Positions 7,871-16,600 of a stretch of DNA of 34,785 nt are shown here, piece by piece. Under the pieces are notes generated by a model. It was not told where the DNA came from. It saw nothing but the letters and a program-made list of their open reading frames with translations, and did not search any database. Source of the stretch: a virus. The stretch is from the UHGV virus genome UHGV-1780165; one strand, given 5' to 3'. The translations under genes were made by a program, and so were the position numbers. How positions within the stretch are numbered: the first letter of the stretch is position 1; each line of letters opens with the position of its first letter.

Positions 7871-8109
7871 AATTATGCCTCACTGTATTGACAACACAGA
7901 GCCTGAAGCTCTGACCTACTGTTTCACCCATGATCCATGCTGGGGTAATCTAACAACATTGCGCTGTGTGTAAGATGAGCAATGCATAGCTGTAATGCCG
8001 TTGTATAAGGTTTCCCTGTTTGCTCATTTCCTTCTGAGCCGCTCTACAACGCTGAAGACACATTAAATAGTGAATCCAAAGTCGTATTACGAAACGGCGG
8101 CAAAACTAT

Positions 8110-8125
8110 AATTTATTAGAGCAAT
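8110..8125 (-). promoter_or_regulatory. C1 operator (reverse complement ATTGCTCTAATAAATT)
   Basis: Exact match to the operator consensus on the minus strand, upstream of coi-c1. Confidence 0.7.
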
Positions 8126-8192
8126 TGTCAAACAACTATGAAAAACAATCCAGTTTTTGGCTGGTGGAGTGGGATTTTTCTCTCAAAATTTA

Positions 8193-8209
8193 TTGCTCTA
8201 ATAATTCTT
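8193..8209 (+). promoter_or_regulatory. C1 operator ATTGCTCTAATAATTCT
   Basis: Near-consensus operator between coi and loxP. Confidence 0.65.
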
Positions 8210-8251: not shown

Positions 8252-8285
8252 ATAACTTCGTATAGCATACATTATACGAAGTTAT
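8252..8285 (+). other. loxP recombination site
   Basis: Exact 34-bp ATAACTTCGTATA-GCATACAT-TATACGAAGTTAT. Confidence 0.98.
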
Positions 8286-10343: not shown

Positions 10344-10904
10344 ATGAAAACAATCGAACAAAAACTTGAACAGCGCCGCGAGTGGCAGAAGGCAGCCAGA
10401 GAACGAGCGATCGCTCGGCAACGGGAAAAGTTGGCTGACCCCGCCTGGCGAGAATCGCAATATCAGAAAATGCGGGATTCTATCGACCGCCGTATCGCTA
10501 AACAGAAAGAGCGCCCACCAGCCAGCAAAACGCGGAAAAGTGCGGTAAAGATAAAATCTCGTGGCTTGAAGGGGCGAACATCGACAGCGGAGGAACGGAG
10601 CATCGCCAATGCTCTTGGCGCTCTCCCCTGCATTGCCTGCTATATGCATGGAGTAATATCTAATGAGGTGTCTCTGCACCATATCGCCGGTCGTACCGCG
10701 CCGGGTTGTCATAAAAAGCAATTGCCACTTTGTAGATGGCACCACCAGCATGCAGCACCGGCTGAAGTAAGAGAAAAATACCCCTGGCTGGTCCCTGTTC
10801 ATGCCGATGGTGTGGTTGGAGGCAAGAAAGAATTCACCTTGCTGAACAAGTCAGAGATGGAGTTGCTGGCTGACGCCTATGAGATGGCAAACATCATGCA
10901 CTAA
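10344..10904 (+). CDS. ref: Ref, HNH-family recombination enhancement nuclease
   Basis: 186 aa from ATG 10344 (MKTIEQKLEQRREW...); Cys/His-rich HNH-like C-terminal half; the listed ORF start 10239 is an in-frame read-through of the leader. Confidence 0.85.
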   Translation: MKTIEQKLEQRREWQKAARERAIARQREKLADPAWRESQYQKMRDSIDRRIAKQKERPPASKTRKSAVKIKSRGLKGRTSTAEERSIANALGALPCIACYMHGVISNEVSLHHIAGRTAPGCHKKQLPLCRWHHQHAAPAEVREKYPWLVPVHADGVVGGKKEFTLLNKSEMELLADAYEMANIMH

Positions 10905-10940
10905 TAAATATATTATTTTTAATCTGAAATAATTGACAAC

Positions 10941-10959
10941 TGACAAGTGACTTCAGTCA
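10941..10959 (+). promoter_or_regulatory. candidate late-promoter element TGACAAGTGACTTCAGTCA
   Basis: Near-palindromic; shares the AAGTGACTT core with sites upstream of pacA, prt and lyz. Confidence 0.4.
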
Positions 10960-11065
10960 GAATCATCACATGCCCGGTACGGATGGATCCCTTTTCAAAT
11001 ATTCCATGGACGGCACAGTCTGAGTACCGGGCGCTACCTTCAGTTGTATTGCTAAGCCGCCGCTG

Positions 11066-11734
11066 GTGGCTTTTCTTTTTTGTAGGGGCGCTATGGATAA
11101 GAAAATATGCGTTGTTTCGATGAGCGTCGGTAAACCGGCGTCAATGACTGCTGCATGGATCAACAACGAGCTGATAATGGCTGAGCGGACCAGCTACCCT
11201 GAACGCCGCCGCGATATGGAACTCCAGCTGCTGCGCGAATTGCGAGAAAAAGAGGAAAAGGGTTTTATCGTGCTGGTGGAAGAGGAAAACAGCTTTATTA
11301 CTGGTCGAGTTGGCCAGCGTGTAAGGTTGCGCGATCCCTTCATGAACGGCAGGCCGGTACTAATTGAGGCCATGCAGATTTATAAGGAGCTGGAACGCCA
11401 GAAAGCAATCAAGTTACCGCGCAAGGAATCCGGCAAATACATCCTCCACCAAAGCATCTTCGATTCCGAACACGATAAAAAAGGCGATGAATTTTTCAAC
11501 ATCAACTGGAGCGAAATAACGACAGAGCATGTTCTGACGTTACTCTGTTGCTTTGCGACGGAATACAACAACGTTGCCAGCGCAGACTACATCAGGGCAA
11601 TGGCTTGTGAAGTGGATAGTCGTGATGACTCATCGCTGATAGCGTCATATATAAACATCATCAAGAAAACTCAAATTATGGGATGCGCTAGAGTTCCTCA
11701 AGGAATACTCACCGGAAAGAATAATATTCTATAA
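11066..11734 (+). CDS. hypothetical protein at the position of P1 mat
   Basis: 222-aa ORF (alternative ATG at 11093); assignment by position only. Confidence 0.45.
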   Translation: MAFLFCRGAMDKKICVVSMSVGKPASMTAAWINNELIMAERTSYPERRRDMELQLLRELREKEEKGFIVLVEEENSFITGRVGQRVRLRDPFMNGRPVLIEAMQIYKELERQKAIKLPRKESGKYILHQSIFDSEHDKKGDEFFNINWSEITTEHVLTLLCCFATEYNNVASADYIRAMACEVDSRDDSSLIASYINIIKKTQIMGCARVPQGILTGKNNIL

Positions 11735-11751
11735 CCTACGAAGGTTATTTG
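11733..11751 (+). terminator. weak hairpin TAACCT-ACGA-AGGTTA followed by T-rich tract
   Basis: 6-bp stem then TTTGTTACTTTCT, immediately after the mat-position stop codon. Confidence 0.35.
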
Positions 11752-11778
11752 TTACTTTCTGCGTAAACCCACAACTCA

Positions 11779-11798
11779 CCTTCCTAAGTTAAGGAAGG
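11779..11798. terminator. hairpin CCTTCC-TAAGTTAA-GGAAGG between convergent genes
   Basis: Perfect 6-bp inverted repeat between the mat-position ORF (+) and the 346-aa ORF (-). Confidence 0.35.
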
Positions 11799-11831
11799 TA
11801 TTTATCATGAAGTTTAGACATAAGCGTATTA

Positions 11832-12872
11832 TTACATGGGATTAACCACAACCTTTCCATATATATCAAGTTTTGATTGTAATACGTTGAGGTGAGACAA
11901 TTCTTTATTCGAACTAACTTTATCTAAAATTATATTTTTATCTTTTTCAGTCATGTTATACCCTAAGGTAATTTGCTTGAATGCAGAAAAAGGAATTTTC
12001 TTTAAGTTAATTTCATGATAGTCATGAAAAACATCAGGATACTCATTTAATAGGCAATCATCAATCGATGGAGAGACAATGCTTCCTATTTTTCTCTCGC
12101 AATCAGCCAATGGAAAAATAATTCTACTTTCATTTTCAGGAAGCCACTCTTCACCTTTTGTATAAAGAAGCCTATTAATAAAAAGCTCGCGAACTGAATC
12201 TCGATTTAAGATTCCATGCAATGTATTATCTTTATTCTTTATATCTATATTCCTCGATGGCGCAGGATAGCCATTAAATCGCACAGCGCCTTTATAATAG
12301 GTTACAGATGCTCTATCTTCTGGATTATAACTAACATCACACGGCCGATATATTTTGAAAAAATCGTGTGTTTCATCGAAAACTACAGCAAACCCCTTTC
12401 CTATCGATGCATAATGAGTCCACATGTGTAGATTGCAATCACTTTTTGATAGAGAGAACACACCAAGATGACAGCTTACGGCTTCTACTAAATAATCGTT
12501 AAGGTACGTTACTATTTCTTGGAGTTTAGATTCATCATATGAATCCATTGAGGTAAAACCTTCATTGATTAACAAGTGTGGAAAATCCTCTCCGTATCGT
12601 TTCCCGCAAGGTTTTAAATAATACTCTAACTCTTGTATAGATGGGACATAAGATGGATCTCGTTGCATTTTCTTAAATTCATTTCTAGCCCATGCGTAAT
12701 CGGCTGGTGAAAATTTATTAAAAAATGGAAGAAGTCGCGACTCACTCGACGGATCATTAAGATACTTTGGTTGCGTTGCTCTAAAGAAACCATCCTCCAG
12801 ACAAGATGTTCTAATGTGCATGCCCGGCCAAGGTTTATCCATATAACTCTCGCCTATATATTTAACTAACAC
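11832..12872 (-). CDS. AT-rich 346-aa protein of unknown function in the slot where P1 has res/mod; candidate defence/abortive-infection protein
   Basis: Long uninterrupted ORF; visibly lower GC than flanks; no Walker A, methyltransferase or HNH motifs seen; internal core GVFSLSKSDCNLHMWTHYASIGKGFAVVFDETHDFF. Confidence 0.6.
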   Translation of the reverse strand: MLVKYIGESYMDKPWPGMHIRTSCLEDGFFRATQPKYLNDPSSESRLLPFFNKFSPADYAWARNEFKKMQRDPSYVPSIQELEYYLKPCGKRYGEDFPHLLINEGFTSMDSYDESKLQEIVTYLNDYLVEAVSCHLGVFSLSKSDCNLHMWTHYASIGKGFAVVFDETHDFFKIYRPCDVSYNPEDRASVTYYKGAVRFNGYPAPSRNIDIKNKDNTLHGILNRDSVRELFINRLLYTKGEEWLPENESRIIFPLADCERKIGSIVSPSIDDCLLNEYPDVFHDYHEINLKKIPFSAFKQITLGYNMTEKDKNIILDKVSSNKELSHLNVLQSKLDIYGKVVVNPM

Positions 12873-12893
12873 TGTATATCGATCCTGTTGTTT

Positions 12894-12914
12894 AAGCCCA
12901 TATCATATGGGCTT
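12894..12914. repeat. perfect palindrome AAGCCCATAT-C-ATATGGGCTT
   Basis: 10-bp arms with a 1-nt spacer, partly extended by TTT/TAAA; lies between the lxc stop and the 346-aa ORF start. Confidence 0.8.
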
Positions 12915-12924
12915 TAAATGATTA

Positions 12925-13173
12925 TTAATCAGCATTCAGAAGCAATGCGTTATCTATGATGATCTGCTCCCATTCTTCGAATGCCCGATCGCGGACACCT
13001 TGGGGAACACTGTTAGTTTTGAAATCGACGACCGTCCGCCATTTCCCGTCCGGGCGGTACATGCGCAGAGCTTTACTTCCCCCTTCCCTGCGCACCTCAA
13101 CGTTGTGCTTGTCAGCAAACTCTTGTAATGCTCGTAGCGTCCCATGCTTTACTGTGTAGTATCGCTTTTTCAA
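12925..13173 (-). CDS. lxc: Lxc-position protein (modulator of C1 repression)
   Basis: 82-aa ORF directly downstream of the ulx-position gene; backbone-like GC; positional assignment. Confidence 0.5.
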   Translation of the reverse strand: MKKRYYTVKHGTLRALQEFADKHNVEVRREGGSKALRMYRPDGKWRTVVDFKTNSVPQGVRDRAFEEWEQIIIDNALLLNAD

Positions 13174-13610
13174 GTTTTCTCTCCAGCCTGTGCTAAGGCT
13201 TCAACTTCCAAATCGTAAGACTCAAACTCATAGTCCTGGTCGTCAACCTCTTCAGGTACTGGCAGTAAATGCCAGGCTGAGTATATCTGACCATTATCAA
13301 AACGCTCCTGGCTGTAGAGCGTCGCAGCTATGAGCGTCAGCGCCGGGCGGTCATAACGGTAAATTTTGCGAACGTCACGGTCAACGAGACGACCGAAATT
13401 ACCATAACCGCGCTCCAGTAATAATTTTTTAATTTCCGGCCAGTATGGACCATAGCTGCGGTACAGGCGGGGATTTTTCAGTAATCGCCCGCGTAGCCCT
13501 GACAGGAAGAAATCAACGTATTCGTCTTCTGTCTTTCCTAACAACGCTGTACGGAGTACCGCCTCAAGATATGTTTTATTCGGTTTTATTGTATCAGATA
13601 GTGTGGCCAT
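13170..13610 (-). CDS. ulx: Ulx-position protein (DarB packaging accessory)
   Basis: 146-aa ORF immediately downstream of darB on the same strand; overlaps lxc start by 4 bp. Confidence 0.5.
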   Translation of the reverse strand: MATLSDTIKPNKTYLEAVLRTALLGKTEDEYVDFFLSGLRGRLLKNPRLYRSYGPYWPEIKKLLLERGYGNFGRLVDRDVRKIYRYDRPALTLIAATLYSQERFDNGQIYSAWHLLPVPEEVDDQDYEFESYDLEVEALAQAGEKT

Positions 13611-13643
13611 ATTATGCGACGCCCGGCGAACCGGGCGCTCCTG

Positions 13644-16600
13644 TTATGCGTATTGTTGGATGACGGCCAGAACGTCCGCCACGTTGTGTTTTGTCTCGAT
13701 AATCCACCAGTTACCCGGGAAATCGCTGTTCTTCGCCTTCGCTGGCAGCCAGCGAGCGCCGAATTTCGCCTTGATTGCGTCTTTCGCACGGAAAAGAACG
13801 CCTTTCATGCCTGAGGCTTCCTGAAGCCCAAATACCTCGCCAGCGGCGAATTTTGGTGCGTACATCATCTTCAGGTCGGCGGTGGATACGCGATAATTCA
13901 GACCAAGAGACTGAGCTATGCTGGTGGCATCACCCTGTATTGATGATAACTCTTCTTGTTTCTCGTTTCTGGCGGCAATTTCTTCCTCCGTGATGTTGCC
14001 AAGGGCCAGGTTTATCCGATCAGCGTCGGCCTGTTTCTCTTCATCGGTGCGCCCGGCAAGAACCGTGTTAATTCTCTGCAATATCTCCACATGATTCTTG
14101 CGCATGCTGAGCAATTCCGGCGTAACCTCGTTAAGATCCACCAGCCCAAGGATGGCAAGGTCGGAAAACATTGATACCAGGTTGTAGGTCATGCGATAGC
14201 TGAGTTGGCCATAGGCTGATGGCAACTGCACCGCATCCATTTGATAGGCATCCATAAATTTAGAGCCGTCGTTTACGACATCCGCAATTGCAGGTGTGAT
14301 TTTCCCTGTGGTGGCGGCCTCCCTGATTGCTGTTACCCATGATTGAGTCAGTGCGGCGACTGCATGATTCAGATTGGCTTCCCGTTCTGCTGCGATGCGC
14401 GCGCTTGCTGAGTCCATTGCCTGCTTGATCTCGGCTTTATTGCTGTAAATGCCAATGGTGCCAAACTGTGCTGTGGTGATCTCATAATCTGACGCCCGGA
14501 ACTCATGGGTACCGAAAATGGCATTGGTGACCTCAAGTTCAGAATCCCCGTTACGAGTAGCCCCCTGGCTTGTTTTCTCCGGCATTTTTGCGATCGCATC
14601 CGCTATTTTCTCCTGAATTGCTTCAGGGGATAGCGTATCTCCGTATGACGCGATTACATCGCCATAATTGGAGCCAAACAATTCAACCAGGAATGTTTCT
14701 GCCGAACGGATCTGGCGGTTATTCCCTTCCGACATCATACCAAGCACCCATTTTGCAATTGACGACTTCAGCGCGCCGTCACGGCGATCCGGGTAAACCG
14801 CATGCTTCAGTGGGTCCGTATAGGTACCAACAAAATCAATGCTATAGCCTGACTCTGTAGTCTGAACGCCGTACGAGTCAGTGATTTTGATCATGCCGCG
14901 CTGCTGGAAACGGTAGAAATCGTCACAGGAAATGATGTCGTTAATCCCGGCGATGGAGACGCCACCACTGATTTTCTGCATAACAGCATCTTCATCGGGA
15001 GTTACATCCACCTGTTTATCCAGCGTCTTCACATCCCAGTTACCCGATTTGGTGCCTTTGAAGGTAAAGATGATCTCCACGTCTGCGCGCTGGCTGTCGA
15101 AGTCCAGCGACTTAATGCGAACGATATCACCGGCACAATCGTAGTATTGGCCTACACGCCATGAGCGATCGCCGATAACAAGGAACTCACTCGCATGGTT
15201 AACCAGGTCAGGATCTACATCCAGAATGCCTTTATTTATTGCATCCTCCACCAGCGGGCGCAGGCGTTTGATATCCGTCGCGGCCTTCTGAGTACGGTTC
15301 AATAATTTCTCATAGCGGGAGATGGCTTGAGAGATATTAGCCTTGCGCTGAATGGCGCTTTTCAACGACGCGCGATACTGTGCTAACAACATACGGTCTG
15401 TGTGATGGACACTCCCCCAGCGGGCCTTCCAGTCTGCGTTATCCGCTGCCTTGGCCATTGCCGCCTGTTTGAATTTAGCTACCTCGGCGGTGGTCTTTTC
15501 AAGTTCCGCTTTGCTTCGCTCTAATTCAGCGGTAAGTACCTCCACATCCTCGCCAGCTGCGTGCTGCGCCTTGATGTAGTTCTGAAGGTCGATAGTAGCC
15601 TGTTCTTTCTGGCGAGCGCGTTGCGCGGCTTTCGCCTTATCCATTTGAACCTGCATCATTGCCAGACGTTCGCCATCATCCTTAGCGGTATACATCTGCA
15701 TTTCGATCATATCGTTGGCGTCGGCGTTCTCCATTTCAGACTTATCTGAGCGGAGGATATCGGAGATCCAGCCTGCTTTACGCTTCAGCGTCTTCAGTCG
15801 GTATTCATCGAAAGAACCCTTGCCGCAGTAGTAGTGAACGCGAACGCTTGCACGGTTGGAACCAACTCGGGCACCGCGACCGTTACGCTGTGCGATACTG
15901 GCTGGTGTCCATGGCAACGTCAGATGATGGATGTCAGTCGTTCCTCGATGCAGGTTGATACCCACCTCTGCCTTTTTGTTGCAGATGATGATCGGAGTCC
16001 GGCCCTCCTGGAAGTCGGCAGCAATCTTTTCCAGCCCACCCAGCGACATTTCATTTTGCTGCGCGATATAGGCGTCATACAGAGCCATTTGCTCGTTGTA
16101 TTTCGCTATCTGTGCATCTGTTGGTTCATCCGGTAGCTCTTTCGGTGGTTTAACCGCTTTCAGTTTCTTACCGGTTTTACCTGCCTCGGCAACCGTCTGA
16201 GCATTCAGGATCCCCACCTTTGAAGGTTCAAGGTTAAGAGCATTGCAGATAATGCGCTTGAGCTTCTGGTGTTGCGTTTTTTCATCGGTGAAGATGATTT
16301 GCTTACCTTCCGGGAAAAACTCCTTCAGCGTGGCAATCAGCTTCGCGTATTTGGGCGTAACGGGGTGAGTTACGGTCTGTTCGTCAATGCCAAACTTGGC
16401 CAGGCGCTTATTCACTTCCTGCTCAAATGCTTCCGGTACCTGCAACTGAATAAACTCGCCCTTATCTATCAGGGAGTATTGCGATTGCTGCGTGATCGAA
16501 TCATCACTGTCGTCGTCTTCGCTGGTGGCTTGTTTAGGCAAACTGTCCGCCAGCTGCTGCACCGCATCGGCGTACTCCGGCAGGAAACGATAGGTGATCC

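Follow-up and report, generated by a model that had tools for sequence, protein, structure and literature searches.

A perfect palindrome beside the lxc stop codon of a P1-like phage-plasmid, most likely a stem-loop ending a phage transcription unit

In the 34,785-nt virus genome analysed here (UHGV-1780165, the whole stretch being referred to as the window), a perfect palindrome separates the stop codon of lxc from an AT-rich cargo gene. What is such an element doing at the edge of an exchangeable cassette? A sequence-only reading of the locus had offered three possible answers: a binding site for a dimeric regulator, a hairpin involved in RNA processing or stability, and a scar left by cassette exchange. 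We compared the junction with those of elements having the same or different cargo, analysed its RNA fold and the transcription signals around it, and weighed these options together with further ones.

The palindrome and its setting

Judged by its sequence, the window is a P1-like phage-plasmid. Over positions 10900-13700, P1, P7 and many IncY-type plasmids match it with 97-100% identity, the plasmid of NZ_CP135714.1 with 100%; 708 PLSDB records matched. The backbone assignment is confirmed by a perfect loxP (ATAACTTCGTATA gcatacat TATACGAAGTTAT, 8252-8285) together with C1 operators. The latter are two near-consensus sites just upstream of loxP, at 8109-8125 and 8192-8208. A minus-strand block of darB, ulx, lxc and a DUF2971 gene runs convergent with mat on the plus strand, lxc being the last conserved gene of the darB-ulx-lxc block. 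The DUF2971 gene occupies the mat-lxc slot, in which P1 carries the type III restriction-modification genes mod-res.

20411-13644, minus strand: darB, start of the minus-strand block darB-ulx-lxc
13610-13170, minus strand: ulx, between darB and lxc
12925-13173, minus strand: lxc, 82 aa, C1 co-repressor gene (ORF; 97% DNA identity to annotated P1 lxc)
12891-12917, no strand assigned: extended imperfect inverted repeat, TTTAAGCCCATAT / ATATGGGCTTTAA, 13-nt arms with one bulge, 92% complementary
12894-12914, minus strand: palindrome, 9-bp stem with 3-nt loop when folded as RNA
12883-12886, minus strand: AGGA, Shine-Dalgarno-like, 7 nt past the hairpin and 10 nt before GTG 12872 (read from sequence)
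11832-12872, minus strand: AT-rich DUF2971 gene, 346 aa from GTG 12872 (ORF; Pfam DUF2971 4.4e-6)

The palindrome was confirmed, in sequence as well as in position, exactly as first reported: a perfect 10-1-10 repeat, AAGCCCATAT-C-ATATGGGCTT, with the full 21-mer AAGCCCATATCATATGGGCTT at 12894-12914. The distances to the neighbouring genes had to be revised. As the lxc stop codon lies at 12925-12927, the gap on this side measures 10 nt instead of 11 bp, and the cargo start, previously put at about 40 bp, is really 21 nt away when GTG 12872 is taken as start codon, or 51 nt away with ATG 12842. With the GTG start, the spacer between lxc and cargo amounts to 52 nt, made up of 10 nt, the 21-nt palindrome and another 21 nt.

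Records differ in where this cargo gene begins. The PGAP record CP083412.1 sets the start at ATG 12842 (336 aa), and in some RefSeq records the annotated CDS extends into the 12842-12872 stretch. An Aeromonas homologue, 49% identical, aligns from residue 1 (MLVKY) with the ORF opening at GTG 12872, which supports this codon; GTG 12872 is thus probably the true start, mis-set in some annotated records. The gene has a GC content of 0.28-0.40 compared with about 0.5, and its product, a candidate single-gene defence protein, matched PDC-S31, a candidate defence family, at 3.5e-16 in a comparison with PADLOC. By tblastn against plasmids, it was present at 95% identity or more in 89 plasmids, and the only other homologues were distant ones (below 60% identity), five from Aeromonas and one from Pseudoalteromonas. 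When the cassette only was searched by blastn in 5,426 E. coli genomes, 63 genomes matched, with 64 of the 65 places lying on plasmids. Neither search, tblastn in plasmids or blastn in the E. coli genomes, identified a donor context other than P1. In the Aeromonas plasmids, the homologue adjoins a PIN-domain gene and a gamma-mobile-trio gene (gmtX); the one distant Aeromonas homologue that we examined had no related palindrome upstream.

The 21-mer is single-copy in the window, even when up to 3 mismatches are allowed, and 0 of 100 shuffles matched. Moreover, perfect hairpins with arms no shorter than 10 bp and a loop no longer than 10 nt number three in the window, where Markov simulations predict 0.39; besides the palindrome, they comprise loxP (8252-8285) and, at 26356-26379, a site resembling a canonical terminator. 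Given its uniqueness and this excess, we consider the palindrome a real feature and not a chance product.

The junction with the same and with other cargo

We next compared elements bearing the same cargo. The identical 21-mer was found in 26 of 26 DUF2971-type junctions fetched. An lxc-based probe, which is independent of the palindrome, returned 15 such junctions from IMG/VR, and scanning metagenomes with Ns in place of the palindrome returned nine further ones, all of them identical. The 63-nt junction occurred in 90 PLSDB plasmids, consistent with the 89 found above to have the DUF2971 gene (at least 95% identity); 56 copies were identical and 34 had one mismatch. Four of the one-mismatch plasmids were sampled; in each, the change affected position 12878 or 12882, both SNP sites of the 52-nt spacer falling outside the palindrome, which was intact. 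Absence from related elements with the same cargo, named beforehand as a finding that would count against the proposal, was therefore seen neither in the 26 junctions nor in the four sampled plasmids. Since all copies are more than 98% identical, this invariance says little about constraint, and the stem, being invariant, shows no compensatory changes. In E. coli H15 plasmid A (NZ_CP010179.1; L101 3990-4000), an IS1 end is located at the equivalent of window position 12887, 7 bp from the palindrome; palindrome and lxc are kept, and the DUF2971 gene and mat are gone. Considered as an example of the same hairpin with different cargo, this plasmid was rejected, as it represents an IS1-associated loss of the DUF2971 gene and not a different cassette. 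Besides it, we found no case of the same hairpin accompanying different cargo.

A column-by-column comparison with 11 other junction types delimited the segment that is exchanged at this locus.

11606-12924, no strand assigned: swapped variable segment
11093-11734, plus strand: mat, maturation control protein, conserved left flank of the cargo slot (annotation in the near-identical CP083412.1)
11778-11799, plus strand: second hairpin, ACCTTCCTaagttaAGGAAGGT, separating the stops of the convergent mat and DUF2971 genes

The segment extends from inside the 3' end of mat to the last base before the lxc stop codon and holds its own mat C-terminus, the DUF2971 gene and both hairpins. Cross-type homology starts at the lxc stop codon itself, so that the palindrome, described earlier as marking the cassette boundary, is indeed part of the swapped segment, whose lxc edge is 10 nt away. 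Over its final ~43 codons (11606-11734), the window's mat is highly diverged from all other junction types, and the upstream part is near-identical, which identifies the alternative Mat C-terminus as part of the swapped block. The hairpin at 11778-11799 is terminator-like in the mat sense (plus strand) only, where it is followed by the tail ATTTATCATG. A search for direct or inverted repeats flanking the cassette yielded short chance pairs only.

The more informative comparison was that across cargo types. An lxc probe collected 87 P1-like junctions, which represent 21 sequence types and about 11 cargo groups: the empty slot (39 or 29 bp), mod-res, two RelA/SpoT-like variants, two 434/435-aa variants, two 201/202-aa variants, a 316-aa protein, a 132-aa protein and others. 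In nearly all types, the lxc stop is followed by a perfect, GC-based stem-loop of 6-12 bp that ends 0-15 nt beyond this codon, and at the level of cargo groups, a hairpin beside the stop codon is found in about 9 of 11, with cargo either convergent or tandem to lxc. The stems are unrelated in sequence and have no common core between cargo types, as illustrated by the following examples.

RCS47 (empty slot): TGCCCGG-n7-CCGGGCA
SJ46: CTATGCCTGGCT-t-AGCCAGGCATAG
JL22: TTAGGCCACT-n11-AGTGGCCTAA
L053: TCTCCGGCCTA-n7-TAGGCCGGAGA
L036: TTTCCCGGTAT-n6-ATACCGGGAAA
L050: TTTATCGGGCAG-n6-CTGCCCGATAAA

The empty site of RCS47, with 39 bp from mat to lxc, is essentially the hairpin alone, having a TCTTTC tail in lxc sense. 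Four types (RCS47, L036, L050 and L054) carry a U-rich tail on the lxc-sense side only. JL22, the other tandem cargo type, shares the layout of the window: it has 7 nt from stop to hairpin and 23 nt from hairpin to ATG, compared with 10 nt and, up to the GTG, 21 nt in the window. One hairpin is common to the empty site L057 and to L023, which has RelA/SpoT-like cargo; here the L023 cargo lies to the mat side of a backbone hairpin. The main exception is the mod-res type of P1 itself, which lacks a strong hairpin and in which the annotated P2mod promoter overlaps the lxc stop. In addition, L033 has no hairpin within 70 nt, that of L027 is 30 nt away, and L026, of the JL22 subtype, has a single G-to-A mismatch in its stem. 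This right-arm change (L026, L047 and L055) gives a G.U pair in the lxc-sense RNA and a C.A mismatch on the other strand, and it hints at the lxc-sense transcript being the selected structure; as a single event, it is only suggestive.

Three kinds of cargo occur in two diverged versions each, namely the 434/435-aa protein (L053 vs L054), the RelA/SpoT-like protein of 379/378 aa (L003 vs L023) and the 202/201-aa protein (L022 vs L075), and each diverged version has a different hairpin beside lxc. Within the GCCCGG-stem family, the stem is conserved and the loop is free to vary (4-7 nt).

Across the 87 junctions, it is thus the position of the hairpin beside the lxc stop that is conserved, and not its sequence. 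This pattern argues for a structure serving the 3' end of the lxc transcript. The comparison with P1-like genomes carrying other cargo, which had been proposed with the first description of the site, hence turned up unrelated hairpins at the same place and favours the RNA hairpin among the options listed there. The feature can be dispensed with, as is shown by P1, which lacks a hairpin here.

RNA structure, termination and read-through

The bare 21-mer folds with -11.1 kcal/mol. In a 61-nt context, the value is -13 kcal/mol for the lxc-sense RNA and -15.4 kcal/mol for the plus strand (z = -3.1), the plus-strand fold being the stronger. The stem rests on four GC pairs (GCCC/GGGC), and its GC core (GCCCATAT/ATATGGGC) continues into UUUAAAUGAUUAUU on the plus strand and into UUAAACAACAGG in lxc sense; the tails following the stem read UUAAACAA in lxc sense and UUUAAAUG on the plus strand. 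Within the extended repeat at 12891-12917, the AA...TT(T) around the GC core would act as short A and T tracts. Measured against an intrinsic terminator, the palindrome has the stem (GC-rich, 5-14 bp, with a short loop) and the position, 10 nt past the lxc stop codon; on neither strand does it have the U-tract, taken as about five or more U in the 8 nt right after the stem. We therefore did not file it as a canonical terminator. A consensus terminator scan likewise flagged nothing at 12894-12914 on either strand. The earlier statement that neither strand has a U-tract thus holds for a canonical tract and fails for truncated ones, as UU follows in lxc sense and UUU on the opposite strand. A terminator index gave low values on both strands, placing the site among the weakest junction hairpins in lxc sense and higher on the plus strand; this index is of the d'Aubenton-Carafa type with modern energy parameters; its absolute threshold is unreliable, and it serves to rank strands and junction types only. 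Altogether, the window hairpin is among the weakest of the junction-hairpin set.

Additional insight came from the occurrence of the exact 21-mer among 185,579 GTDB species genomes, where it turned up in one E. coli contig of the P1-like kind and otherwise only as part of two unrelated terminators.

L005 160-180 and L006 1599-1619: identical 21-mer in Clostridia/Acinetobacter genomes, stem of A-run/T-run terminators

In the Acinetobacter and Clostridia genomes, the 21-mer lies 4 nt and 43 nt beyond ORF ends; with A runs and T runs five or more nucleotides long at its sides, it has the canonical shape of a bidirectional terminator. As the same 21-mer builds these textbook-shaped terminators, its stem is of terminator grade, and the window palindrome can be read as such a stem in which only the A/T tracts are truncated (AA...TTT). 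The Clostridia and Acinetobacter copies themselves look like convergence on the same stem.

Two promoters upstream of lxc could be mapped from the P1 annotation.

13218-13246, minus strand: counterpart of P1lxc (P1 annotation mapped; hexamers identical to P1)
13396-13424, minus strand: counterpart of P2lxc (P1 annotation mapped; sequence identical to P1)

The lxc promoters were reported to be constitutive and outside C1 control (PMC8546580). The window counterpart of P2mod from P1 has degraded hexamers (ACGCAT / TAATAA), and no sigma-70-like site was found between lxc and the cargo start. With AGGA and GTG following only 7 and 21 nt past the hairpin, there is no room for a promoter of the cargo's own. 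In the region as a whole, two sigma-70-like sites were found as compared to 5.8 expected from shuffles, that is, no enrichment. The best match, ATGACA-17-AATAAT (10/12, 12468-12496, plus strand), is antisense within the cargo gene and directed toward the palindrome and lxc. We found no literature treating the lxc-cargo junction.

Weighing these data, we hold with somewhat more confidence than doubt that the palindrome acts as an RNA stem-loop of the lxc transcript, as a leaky terminator and/or a 3'-end stability hairpin, with read-through into the cargo. In the mechanism we propose, leftward minus-strand transcripts starting at the conserved lxc promoters would form a 9-10 bp stem-loop ten nt past the lxc UAA, and this structure would provide the 3' end of the lxc message, the role that the unrelated hairpins may have in almost all other P1-like elements. 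With a U-tract of only UU in lxc sense, the hairpin is expected to be leaky, working as a weak terminator, an exonuclease barrier or both, and not as an efficient stop. If it is leaky, part of lxc transcription would continue into the DUF2971 cargo gene, and read-through across a leaky hairpin is the simplest reading of how tandem cargo genes could be expressed. On the plus strand, where the tail is UUUAAAUGAUUAUU, the same stem may damp antisense transcription running from the AT-rich cargo toward lxc. The suggestion of an RNA processing or stability hairpin, one of those made at the outset, is in this way supported by the comparison of same-cargo and other-cargo junctions.

Known systems resemble the site to different degrees. 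Like intrinsic terminators, it has a perfect GC-based stem with a short loop about 10 nt past a stop codon and AA...TT(T) around the GC core; the identical 21-mer with full A/T runs at Acinetobacter and Clostridia gene ends and the hairpin of the RCS47 empty site are similar. It departs from them in having just 2 (lxc sense) or 3 (plus strand) uridines, and in the tandem gene 21 nt further on, which full termination would silence. REP hairpins between malE and malF block 3'-5' exonucleases and thereby act as intercistronic mRNA stabilisers. The window stem-loop resembles them in lacking a U-tract and in lying past the upstream stop and before the next ribosome-binding site, and by analogy, its effect may be a differential stability of the upstream message; unlike them, it is single-copy, has no REP consensus and belongs to no dispersed repeat family. 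An Rfam scan of 11600-13300 gave no family at an E-value of 1 or below. The morons of temperate phages are extra genes between conserved phage genes, bracketed by transcription signals of their own. The AT-rich cargo, which is framed by conserved genes and has hairpins on both sides (11778-11799 and 12894-12914), fits this description, except that it has no recognisable promoter and that its upstream hairpin is placed to serve the lxc unit and not the cargo. Compared to the lxc-mod junction of P1 (NC_005856), the backbone position is the same and the next gene is likewise tandem with lxc; P1, however, has two annotated mod promoters and no strong hairpin, whereas the window has a degraded P2mod and a hairpin instead. 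With integron attC sites, finally, the palindrome has in common that it lies at the edge of an exchangeable gene cassette. It differs in size (21 bp vs 57-141 bp) and in lacking an R''/R' core pair, extrahelical bases, an integrase and attI, and the edges of the window cassette are set by homology with mat and lxc. An attC site was accordingly considered and rejected, as the flanks GTTTAAG / CTTTAAA, compared by eye, do not fit the R''(RYYYAAC)/R'(GTTRRRY) cores, the 21 bp are perfect and the slot contains no integrase.

Alternative explanations and implications

Could the palindrome instead be a relic without present function, a terminator from a donor or a diverged P1-like lineage that arrived with a young cassette? 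The exchange of the whole 1.3-kb segment as one block, divergent mat 3' end included, would fit such a history, as would the U-tract truncated on both strands, and copies more than 98% identical show no constraint by being conserved. The stem is still perfect, however, and among 11 independent cargo groups, about 9 have a hairpin beside the lxc stop, far above what random capture would give and pointing to selection at this position; we therefore regard a mere relic as rather unlikely. We give slightly less credit to a role exerted mainly on the plus strand, by which the hairpin would stop antisense transcripts from spurious promoters in the AT-rich cargo and shield lxc-ulx-darB. This strand has the stronger fold (-15.4 kcal/mol, z = -3.1) and, with UUUAAAUGAUUAUU, a tail more U-rich than that in lxc sense; the 10/12 sigma-70-like site at 12468-12496 lies on the plus strand of the cargo gene, and the mat-side hairpin is likewise terminator-like on the plus strand only. 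Yet promoter-like sites are not enriched (2 vs 5.8 expected), the plus-strand tail falls short of a canonical one, and the better tail of other cargo types is on the lxc-sense side, leaving this an unlikely main function.

The remaining alternatives place the function in the DNA itself. The half-sites of a 10-1-10 palindrome are centred 11 bp from each other, roughly one helical turn, a spacing that suits helix-turn-helix dimers, and with the site 21 nt before the start codon and just downstream of the position of the P1 P2mod -10 element, it could be an operator through which a dimeric regulator of the host or the element controls the DUF2971 gene or a promoter over the lxc stop. The cassette, however, encodes no regulator, the hexamers resembling P2mod are degraded, nothing related to the site lies upstream of the 49%-identical Aeromonas homologue, and natural operators are rarely perfect over 10 bp. 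Unrelated palindromes at the same spot whatever the cargo orientation fit a structural role better. The C1 operator of P1 is an asymmetric 17-bp consensus, ATTGCTCTAATAAATTT (PMC8546580); as a candidate it was rejected, since none of its seven matches in the window at 3 or fewer mismatches is near 12894-12914, and an operator as a whole is improbable to our judgement. Less probable still is a recombination site or scar, where hairpin or cruciform DNA at the lxc edge would mark or promote the exchange of mat-lxc cargo. The palindrome does lie 10 nt from the homology break, hairpins occupy this spot in nearly all cargo types, and the IS1 end in plasmid H15-A is 7 bp away. Against this, the break falls on the lxc stop codon and not on the hairpin, and the left break lies inside mat, as expected of homologous exchange between diverged relatives; nor is there a common hairpin core, an attC-type RYYYAAC/GTTRRRY pair, a recombinase gene in the slot or a pair of cassette-flanking repeats. 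The scar contemplated in the sequence-only reading thus fares poorly. A related idea, marginally less probable, is that the lxc-stop hairpins form a landmark by which exchange is concentrated in the mat-lxc slot, for instance through cruciforms or stalled forks that seed illegitimate joins. Were it true, P1-like phage-plasmids would have in this slot an integron-like cassette site that works without a recombinase.

Returning to the favoured reading of an RNA stem-loop at the end of the lxc transcript, the hairpin at 12894-12914 is most likely an ordinary, previously undescribed case of a well-known kind, a stem-loop ending a phage transcription unit. It helps to define the mat-lxc cargo slot, which has a sharp right edge at the lxc stop codon that is usually closed by a hairpin, and which holds mod-res in P1 and DUF2971, RelA/SpoT-like or other cargo elsewhere. 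With regard to annotation, the likely start codon of the DUF2971 gene has been corrected. Tandem cargo, including a candidate defence gene, would probably rely on the constitutive lxc promoters, by way of read-through, and such a dependence would bear on the expression levels of cargo in lysogens and on the engineering of cargo in P1 vectors.
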